The position numbers and the translations under genes were made by a program. From a virus, in IMG/VR virus record IMGVR_UViG_3300029258_005404: a stretch of 64,000 nt of DNA; one strand, 5' to 3'. The notes beneath the pieces were generated by a model that saw only the letters and a list, made by a program, of their open reading frames with translations, was not told the DNA's origin and made no database searches. This document shows positions 60,143 through 61,357 of the stretch, in pieces (position 1 is the stretch's first letter; each line of letters opens with the position of its first letter).

Positions 60143-61357
60143 ATGGCCAAAGTTAAAAAAGCTAATACTGGCCTTAACAGAACGGTTGTATTTGAAGTCA
60201 GTGTTGCTAATAATAATATTAAAAAACAAGTCATGGCGTCTATAGATAAATATAGAGCAGTGGCACGAAAGATGTATTCATCGGTTGCGATGGCAGCAAC
60301 TGCAGGAGCAACAATCGAAGTAAAAAATGGTGATGTCAGGGTTAAACCTTATACTCAAAATTCAAAAGATATATTGTCAAAAGCATATAATGTGTCTGGA
60401 AAAGCTCAATTTTATGAATTAAGAAATTTCGTATTAAAAGATCATGCTAATACATGGCAATCTGTAATATGGGATTCTTGCAGACTTGCAGTGGCTGGGA
60501 CATGGAATCATGCTGATCCCGAATTTTCTAAAGGTGAAAAGAAGGTTGGACGTGGCTGGTTATCACTCCAAGGCGCAAGAGCTTTTGGATTTTTCAATCG
60601 TTGTGGTATAGGTTTACCAAATACAAAATCTATACAATTTGGTTCAAAAAGTATGACGATGAAATGGGACAAGGAAATTGATGATGTAACATTTTTCGTT
60701 GACAGTAAGCTTCCCGGGAATACATTCTGGAAATTTAAGAACATAAGAGATGGTGTATGGGAAAGGGGTACATGTTACATTGGGTGGAAGTATAAAAATA
60801 TCGGTGGTGGTAAAAAAGTAAAAACACTTTATATAACAATGACCTATAAACTTCCAGAAAATTATTTCAATGAGGAATCAGGTGAAGGTGTTATGATTGT
60901 TGAGTTTACAGATGATCCTGAAAACGGAATCGTCATGTATTCTGATGATAAGTTCCATTATTCCGACAAAATAAGTGTGTATGAGGCTATAGCATGGAAT
61001 AAGCAACTCAATGTTGTAAAGGATTACTACAAAAAACAAAGAGCATCAGTTGGTGGTAGAGATAAGCAGTGGGGTCTCAACCAAAGTCTCATGGTTATTA
61101 GTAACAAAAGTGAAAATTTGACCAAAAGGAGAATTAACGGCAAAAAGCATCGGAATCATATATGGGCCAACAGAATAGTGGCGAGAGTTAGACAATGGGG
61201 TATGGGTGTTGTTGTACTCAAAGATTTTCCTGACGGCCTATTAATTGATCAGGAATGGTCTATGTTTGAGCTTAAAGAAATATTGAAGTACAAACTTAGA
61301 GAAATTGGGTGTGAGTTGAAAACCTATAATACCCCAAAAGAAGAAGAAGCTGCTTAG
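60143..61357 (+). CDS. Nuclease-inactivated TnpB/Cas12f-like RNA-guided protein (404 aa)
   Basis: SLQGARAFGFF...IGLP, WED strand LYITMTYK, RuvC-I-like VMIVEFT, basic bridge helix, H.WANRIV...VVVLKDF, WSMFELKEILKYKLREIG; ends before the zinc finger and RuvC-III; adjacent to a CRISPR array. Confidence 0.8.
   Translation: MAKVKKANTGLNRTVVFEVSVANNNIKKQVMASIDKYRAVARKMYSSVAMAATAGATIEVKNGDVRVKPYTQNSKDILSKAYNVSGKAQFYELRNFVLKDHANTWQSVIWDSCRLAVAGTWNHADPEFSKGEKKVGRGWLSLQGARAFGFFNRCGIGLPNTKSIQFGSKSMTMKWDKEIDDVTFFVDSKLPGNTFWKFKNIRDGVWERGTCYIGWKYKNIGGGKKVKTLYITMTYKLPENYFNEESGEGVMIVEFTDDPENGIVMYSDDKFHYSDKISVYEAIAWNKQLNVVKDYYKKQRASVGGRDKQWGLNQSLMVISNKSENLTKRRINGKKHRNHIWANRIVARVRQWGMGVVVLKDFPDGLLIDQEWSMFELKEILKYKLREIGCELKTYNTPKEEEAA

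Follow-up and report, generated by a model that had tools for sequence, protein, structure and literature searches.

Our results suggest that a virus in the IMG/VR collection carries a CRISPR system that is probably RNA-guided, DNA-binding and non-cutting. The stretch analysed here (the window) comprises 64,000 nucleotides (nt) of record IMGVR_UViG_3300029258_005404. The system in question consists of an open reading frame (ORF) for a nuclease-dead, C-terminally shortened Cas12f homologue (the effector), a CRISPR array, a tracrRNA-like (trans-activating CRISPR RNA-like) element and a small zinc-ribbon ORF, all on the plus strand. We propose that this is a naturally nuclease-dead system derived from Cas12f (type V-F lineage), and that it probably binds DNA under RNA guidance without cleavage, as a repressor or a recruitment platform. 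An original prediction, made from the letters of the sequence and its translated ORFs, had claimed that the effector lost all three RuvC catalytic positions while keeping its RNA/DNA-binding scaffold.

The effector ORF (60143-61357) encodes 404 amino acids (aa). When used alone, this protein had no match in Pfam or NCBIfam and gave only noise against PHROGs and, with phmmer, against the PDB; PADLOC returned weak Cas12f (E=0.013) and Cas12u3 matches, with E about 0.01-0.02. Cas12f was reached by the family profile only. When 1.8 billion cluster representatives were searched exhaustively with HMMER (cut-off E<1e-3), 143 relatives emerged, 48 of them at E<1e-30 and most of them 360-430 aa long, and 68 of the 143 were used to build the family alignment and profile. 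Against the PDB, this profile matched OsCas12f (9nzq, E=1.2e-25), SpCas12f1 (9i8y, E=7e-21), AsCas12f (8j12, E=8e-20), CnCas12f (8hr5, E=5e-17) and a solved nuclease-deactivated Cas12f, or dCas12f (9n9c, E=2e-16); Cas12m was absent from these matches. The sequence homology to Cas12f is recognisable in the WED/RuvC half of the protein (E 1e-25 to 1e-20).

The predicted structure extends this likeness to the whole chain. The AlphaFold2 model built on the 68-member alignment had a mean pLDDT (predicted local distance difference test) of 93.8, and the top Foldseek matches were AsCas12f, dCas12f and OsCas12f, with E about 1e-13 to 1e-14 (best 3e-14). With VIA-align, the model superposed on AsCas12f at Z=21.1 (333 residues aligned, root-mean-square deviation 6.4) and on the solved dCas12f 9n9c, over the full length of the latter, at Z=20.5. 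The Z scores were lower for Cas12k (about 16), for TnpB (14-15) and for Cas12m (11-12, Cas12m2 structures). Since model residues 11-404 map to residues 1-381 of the 422 of AsCas12f, we conclude from profile and model that the effector is a Cas12f homologue over its entire chain and ends where the Cas12f zinc finger starts. The effector combines the TnpB/Cas12f fold (WED, REC, RuvC) with sequence homology to Cas12f, and the claim of a conserved binding scaffold holds, the WED/REC/RuvC scaffold being intact up to the last RuvC strand.

We next consider the catalytic site. When the family profile was aligned with the solved Cas12f proteins, the RuvC-I remnant VMIVEFT (residues 250-256; 60890-60910) placed E254 at the position of the catalytic Asp (GVDMG in OsCas12f, GIDLG in AsCas12f), and the RuvC-II remnant VVVLKDF (residues 356-362; 61208-61228) placed K360 at the position of the catalytic Glu (MEDL). 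Both replacements had been read correctly from the sequence. The same is true of the C-terminus, which had been described as lacking a zinc finger and a RuvC-III Asp: the stop codon comes 15 aa after LKYKLREIG (residues 381-389). Because the chain ends before it, the RuvC-III Asp has no counterpart in the effector, and because the model covers only residues 1-381 of AsCas12f, the zinc finger and the RuvC-III segment have none either. Thus, of the Asp-Glu-Asp triad of RuvC, the effector has E254, K360 and no third position, and its polypeptide contains no C-terminal zinc finger (TNB). From sequence and model, the effector most likely does not cut DNA.

The loss is not peculiar to the window. 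Across the 68-member alignment the RuvC-I column is unconserved (Glu in 17, Ala in 11, Ser in 10, Lys in 8, Thr and Arg in 6 each, and others), and so is the RuvC-II column (Glu in 9, Val in 8, Thr, Ile and Phe in 6 each, and others). The tail past the last RuvC strand measures 0-38 aa, while 14 other positions are at least 90% conserved, among them an N-H-x-W motif that is conserved in active Cas12f too. One comparison was with L001, a complete 208-kb phage contig whose effector homologue is 48% identical: the ratio of nonsynonymous to synonymous substitution rates (dN/dS) was 0.24 (NG86) to 0.35 (LWL85), with dS saturated. Because the catalytic columns are unconserved, the C-terminus is absent across the family and dN/dS is low, the sequences indicate that the loss of the nuclease site is ancient and family-wide, with purifying selection on the remaining protein. 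A recent truncation of an active gene, which the original prediction had named as the finding that would overturn it, does not fit, as the homologues share the missing C-terminus.

A CRISPR array follows the effector gene. As defined by a repeat finder and our own extraction, it spans 61563-61954 and contains seven repeats of 29 nt (consensus GTATTCTCCGCGCGCGCGAGGGAAACTGG) and six spacers of 31-32 nt. The repeats are partly degenerate, and their 3' half is more conserved than their 5' half, which fits a guide placed 3' of the repeat. Arrays with a 61-nt period follow the effector gene in the window, in L001 and in three further loci (L006, L038 and L039), and the geometry of 29-nt repeat and 32-nt spacer is common to all arrays of the family. 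This geometry is that of type I-E/I-F adaptation and differs from that of typical V-F arrays. Past the last repeat lies an AT-rich sequence (61955-61986) that, by its position, is a possible terminal guide. Ahead of the first repeat, on the side of the effector gene, about three units that resemble decayed repeats (near 61382, 61443 and 61502; 61382-61562) stand in register with the array; these were read by eye, and just a GGAAA(T/C)TG-like tail is recognisable in them.

Downstream of the array we found a tracrRNA-like RNA of about 80 nt with three hairpins (62034-62112; 5' limit approximate). Hairpin 1 (62039-62056) exposes in its loop the anti-repeat CAGTTT (62046-62051), the exact complement of repeat nt 23-28, that is, of the six bases AAACTG that adjoin the spacer (6 bp). 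Hairpins 2 (62058-62078) and 3 (62081-62093) come next, then a 3' anti-repeat, CCCTCGCGCGC (62095-62105), the exact complement of repeat nt 12-22 (11 bp), and finally TTTTT (62107-62111). A terminator-like hairpin between the array and this element (61999-62017) is a pattern match only, from a consensus scan. No Rfam family matched the array or the tracrRNA-like region.

Six further copies, which come from four loci, show both anti-repeat contacts tracking the local repeat. In the two L001 copies the repeat tail AAATGG faces the loop CCATTT, and the 3' anti-repeat is CCCTCGTGCGC or CCCTCACGCGC; in L006 the tail TTCGGG faces CCCGAA, with ACCCCTGTAT against ATGCGGGGGT; in L038 array 2 TAATGG faces CCATTA, with CTCCTGCAC against GTGCGGGGG; and in L039 ATGTGG faces CCACAT. 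In L038 array 1 the loop match is imperfect, and the 3' anti-repeat is CTCGCGCAC against GTGCGCGGG. RNAalifold predicted hairpins 1 and 2 from the seven copies, with compensatory changes in 10/14 pairs. Thus, as occurs at Cas12f loci, the window has an adjacent array and a putative tracrRNA with anti-repeats, and, as read from the DNA, the architecture is as expected for a Cas12f-type pair of tracrRNA and crRNA (CRISPR RNA) with the guide 3' of the repeat.

Three relatives showed variants of this arrangement. In L038 (2826-4530) one effector gene is followed by two arrays, of 8 and 11 repeats, with different repeat variants, and each array has its own tracrRNA-like copy ahead of it with anti-repeats matching that array. 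In L039 (2474-2640) two units of a 13-repeat array hold an extra repeat tail (GGGATGTGGG) within the spacer; these embedded half repeats are consistent with the tail alone defining the guide. In L007, past the family-member gene at 3520-4704, we found 31 and 21 strand-specific AATAATGG units (4896-5650 and 6399-6960). These 52 units, set at intervals of 11-63 nt (mostly 17-37), fall in DNA without ORFs, where about 1-2 would be expected by chance. The first hairpin past this gene has the loop CCATTA, the complement of the repeat tail TAATGG. The segment resembles an array in which each repeat has been reduced to the tail that would pair with the tracrRNA loop, with guide-sized intervals of about 10-25 nt.

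How would such a system work? The array and the tracrRNA-like gene would be transcribed on the plus strand. The 3' half of the repeat would then pair with the tracrRNA twice, in an 11-bp duplex with its 3' tail and in a 6-bp pseudoknot-type contact with the hairpin-1 loop, leaving the spacer free on the 3' side as the guide, an arrangement shared with the guide RNAs of Cas12f and TnpB. Complementarity and co-variation are read directly from the DNA; the RNA species themselves are presumed. The protein keeps the WED/REC/RuvC scaffold and has lost the RuvC-I Asp, the RuvC-II Glu, the zinc finger and the RuvC-III segment. We infer from the homology to characterised dCas12f and from the co-varying RNAs that the ribonucleoprotein would bind complementary DNA and form an R-loop, and that, because of these losses, it could not cut. 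Precedents exist, since the solved dCas12f has been tested experimentally and binds DNA as directed by its guide RNA without cutting (PMC13472631), and Cas12m silences without cleavage (cited in PMC11656645). Binding would most likely block or redirect transcription at sites of the host or of a rival element.

One spacer points to a bacterial chromosomal gene. Spacer 2 (61652-61683) matches exactly, over its nt 1-24, a chromosomal gene in the metagenome-assembled genome (MAG) of an uncultured Puia sp. (Chitinophagaceae; BLAST E=6e-5 within the Puia genome). The target is an MR/MLE enolase-superfamily gene flanked by genes for a proline dehydrogenase and a thioesterase (Pfam). By our own estimate, the chance expectation in the 596 Gb collection is 0.07 for a 22-mer and 0.004 for a 24-mer. 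Since the match runs from the repeat-proximal base over about 24 nt, it is as a Cas12f-type guide would use it. The other spacers of the window and those of L001 gave, in 401 Chitinophagaceae genomes, just matches that cross repeat-spacer junctions or are AT-rich, and the possible terminal guide gave low-complexity, unconvincing matches in Chitinophagaceae genomes. No self-match of more than 14 nt was found for the spacers in the window or the related loci.

Several observations weigh against the proposed function. The last 8 nt of spacer 2 do not match the Puia target, and just one of the six or seven spacers has a match. The target lies in the 3' part of the coding region, not in a promoter, and a single site is insufficient to derive a protospacer-adjacent or target-adjacent motif (PAM or TAM). 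The whole array gave nothing convincing against the INPHARED phages. No match was found for spacers 2, 3 and 6 and two L038 spacers in IMG/VR, or for spacers 6 and 2 in JGI metagenome contigs. In addition, the window protein keeps E254, a conservative change from Asp to Glu, and D361 beside K360, and these two residues could conceivably allow residual metal binding in the window copy alone.

We next examined the zinc-ribbon ORF. It lies behind the array (62135-62359) and encodes 74 aa with the pattern CPHC ... H..C. The original prediction had reported no zinc-finger remnant in any frame; this stands for the effector ORF itself and fails for the locus, where this CxxC ORF is present. It is 58% identical to an ORF at the same position in L001, with a dN/dS of 0.26 (LWL85), and 43% identical (E=2e-16) to the last 70 residues of P0019, a family member in which this segment is fused in frame to the effector. 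In phmmer alignments of P0019 with SpCas12f1 and OsCas12f the match continues across its CxxC...CxC, so that the zinc ribbon of P0019 would occupy the place of the Cas12f zinc finger. Another member, P0008, has its own C-terminal CxxC...CxxC. The ORF has a weak positional homologue in L038 and none in the other loci examined, and is confined to a subclade. It had no Pfam match, and its nearest ESM Atlas clusters were generic viral zinc ribbons, DUF2116 or NinG-like, none of them with the OrfB/TNB family. Complex prediction with the effector scored 0.00, which counts neither for nor against binding, and in the AlphaFold2 model of P0019 the core was confident, with a pLDDT of 41-72 for the zinc-ribbon tail (410-481). 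The 74-aa protein is a candidate partner of the effector; it may be a Cas12f zinc finger that has become separate or a zinc ribbon of other origin. Because its position is conserved and one gene fusion exists, it is likely to be an accessory subunit of the effector in this subclade.

This partner gene raises an alternative, in which the dead effector would bring a partner to the guided site so as to start or alter transcription or another DNA transaction, in parallel with the dCas12f-sigma-E systems and with Cas12k and its transposase. Candidates for this partner are the zinc-ribbon protein, RNA polymerase, a sigma factor of the phage or of the host, or some other enzyme. In the sigma-E systems the site left vacant by the zinc finger and RuvC-III is taken by a domain of the partner (PMC10691335; PMC13472631), and the shared position of the zinc-ribbon gene in the window and L001 and its fusion to the effector C-terminus in P0019 agree with such a role. 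So does L039, where an ORF of HTH_3 (helix-turn-helix) type (99-524) ends 3 nt ahead of the effector homologue, recalling the HTH association of bacterial dCas12f loci. However, the nine ORFs flanking the effector contain no sigma-factor Pfam domain, no protein neighbour is conserved across the loci compared beyond the window and L001 pair, and the zinc-ribbon ORF is limited to its subclade. We therefore regard recruitment as unlikely, although a serious contender.

A bolder proposal joins the zinc ribbon to the shrunken repeats. The zinc-finger segment of Cas12f would survive as the separate zinc-ribbon gene, still fused in P0019, and its product would dock in trans in the vacant zinc-finger/RuvC-III site, as the sigma-E C-terminal domain does. 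To set a guide, no more of the repeat would be needed than its final 6 nt or so, which pair with the hairpin-1 loop, so that arrays can shrink to mini-repeats, as in L007 and in the half repeats of L039. The result would be a modular Cas12f and an ultra-compact, multiplexed, phage-borne system resembling CRISPR interference (CRISPRi) and acting on host genes. We put this forward tentatively, as something that could be true and more probably is not.

The system could also act as an anti-CRISPR decoy, in which the crRNAs or tracrRNA of a Cas12f-type system of the host would be sequestered by the dead effector together with the tracrRNA of the phage. A phage-encoded dead Cas9 has been proposed to act in this way (PMC11656645), and Bacteroidota hosts carry Cas12f-derived systems. 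However, multi-spacer arrays are present in the phage itself, and it is with the phage repeats, not with a host repeat, that its tracrRNA co-varies. Moreover, the 401 Chitinophagaceae genomes contain no array with a similar repeat. The family profile found in them weak matches only (E 1e-17 to 1e-7), which were limited to the C-terminal half. The matching proteins measure about 365 aa and have a sigma-like gene immediately upstream; these are the published rpoE-dCas12f systems, with single guides. Because the sigma-E-linked proteins match the profile so weakly and in that half only, the phage family appears as a clade separate from them. We consider the decoy reading improbable.

Even less probable is a split nuclease, in which the zinc-ribbon ORF would restore activity in trans together with E254 and D361. 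Past its last Cys this ORF has an N-D-Y/N-E-H/G-D-H motif at the place of the RuvC-III Asp of Cas12f, the P0019 alignment sets the ribbon at the zinc-finger place, and the window copy is acidic at or beside two catalytic positions. Against this, the RuvC-I and RuvC-II columns are unconserved family-wide, L001 has Glu as the putative third acidic residue, most loci lack the ORF, and the ESM Atlas puts it among generic viral zinc ribbons rather than OrfB/TNB. That the locus is functionless today, the decaying remains of a phage CRISPR system that used to be active, is hardly credible: the partly degenerate repeats, the decayed units upstream and the absence of cas1 from the complete L001 would fit it, but the ORF is intact with low dN/dS, the family is deep with invariant non-catalytic residues, and the RNA-RNA co-variation is kept across loci. 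The claim that nuclease activity was lost under selection, rather than by decay, is supported by the 143 relatives, the variable catalytic columns, the dN/dS values, the confident model and the co-varying guide RNAs.

With regard to expression, the ribosome-binding site AGGAGG (60132-60137) lies 5 nt ahead of the effector ATG, and the original prediction was right in calling this site and the ORF intact. It also called the promoters intact; a promoter-like TTGAAA-18-TATAAT sequence upstream (60025-60054; 11/12 matches in a consensus scan) is a pattern match only, and promoter-like sites in the region are not more numerous than in shuffled controls.

The window contains tail-fibre, baseplate and helicase genes (PHROGs), and from its gene content the carrier of the effector is a large tailed phage. 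Those relatives whose surroundings could be read are on viral contigs of IMG/VR or on contigs that carry many small genes, and all family members found come from metagenome sources; one peptide-pattern scan of 185,579 species genomes detected no effector relative. The window shares synteny with L001 around the module. Upstream of it are a DUF5983-domain ORF (58220-58825), found at the same place in L001, and an ORF for a pyrimidine-dimer DNA glycosylase (Pyr_excise; 58829-59176). Elsewhere, a 2597-aa ORF (8012-15805) with right-handed beta-helix repeats is probably a giant tail fibre or depolymerase. The segment 40001-42000 has a GC content of 0.46, compared with about 0.35 elsewhere, and lies inside a 1109-aa ORF (38520-41849) without a family match. 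The ORF at 41996-43273 encodes two domains that are typical of Bacteroidota, Fib_succ_major and CarboxypepD_reg. ARAGORN reported a tRNA-Glu (UUC; 45206-45279) and a candidate tmRNA-like gene with an unusual tag peptide (44386-44793), which may be a false positive.

If our interpretation is true, viruses too use non-cutting CRISPR effectors, probably for host reprogramming or the exclusion of rivals. Naturally dead Cas12f proteins have recently been shown to be RNA-guided transcription factors in Bacteroidota, and the phage family would be their sister. It would capture steps on the way from a nuclease to a guide-RNA transcription factor: catalytic loss, a detached zinc finger and shrinking repeats. 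With proteins of about 370-400 aa and short, definable guide RNAs, its members would also be attractive as compact programmable DNA binders.

Finally, we compared the system with those already known. The type V-F Cas12f1 nucleases (AsCas12f, OsCas12f and SpCas12f1; PDB 7wju/8j12, 9nzq and 9i8y) share with it the whole-chain fold (Z 20-21) and an array and a tracrRNA that meet in two repeat:anti-repeat contacts, with the guide located 3' of the repeat. It differs from them in having other residues for the RuvC-I Asp and the RuvC-II Glu, in lacking the zinc finger and the RuvC-III segment, and in its 29-nt repeats, its 32-nt spacers, its phage location and the lack of cas1 in the complete relative. 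Cas12m (type V-M) and TldR, miniature RuvC-inactive silencers that are RNA-guided and do not cut, are the closest functional analogy to the effector. However, Cas12m has a lower Z (about 11-12, compared with 20-21 for Cas12f), uses crRNA-only guides and is plasmid-associated, and TldR is a direct TnpB descendant with a single omega-RNA-like guide, whereas the window system has an array and a tracrRNA.

The closest relatives are other dead Cas12f systems. According to Altae-Tran et al. 2023, Cas12f lineages lost activity with RuvC-III and later minimised their arrays and joined RpoE, which implies array-associated dCas12f as an intermediate (PMC10691335). Hoffmann et al. 2026 showed RNA-guided transcription by dCas12f with sigma-E (PMC13472631). 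The dCas12f-sigma-E proteins of Bacteroidota (PMC13472631; PDB 9n9c/9n9m), with which 'Sigma-TnpB' (PMC10691335) is grouped as RNA-guided transcription systems, are likewise nuclease-dead and cut off just past the last RuvC strand. Their rpoE encodes a sigma-E with a C-terminal extension, in an operon with the effector. In contrast, the window has no rpoE among the nine flanking ORFs, while the Chitinophagaceae relatives have the sigma-like gene upstream; its effector is phage-encoded, and it has a CRISPR array and a separate tracrRNA where those systems have a chimeric single guide.

Hoffmann et al. 2026 also mention in passing a separate dCas12f cluster near CRISPR arrays that may repress genes (PMC13472631). 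As in the window, the dead Cas12f of this putative cluster stands beside arrays and without rpoE (PMC13472631, Extended Data Fig. 1a,b). The study drew its data from NCBI NR and a previous survey (PMC13472631). Repression is the proposed role of the cluster, and one example comes from a MAG of the Chitinophagaceae, to which spacer 2 points as well. Note that this cluster and the phage family were compared by description, not by sequence. The papers on array-associated dCas12f describe no phage origin, co-varying tracrRNA or zinc-ribbon ORF, and our literature search found no paper on a phage-borne dead-Cas12f family with a co-varying tracrRNA and a zinc-ribbon gene. Nuclease-dead Cas12f was thus already known, and the phage-borne family with arrays, tracrRNA and zinc ribbon is a new form of it.

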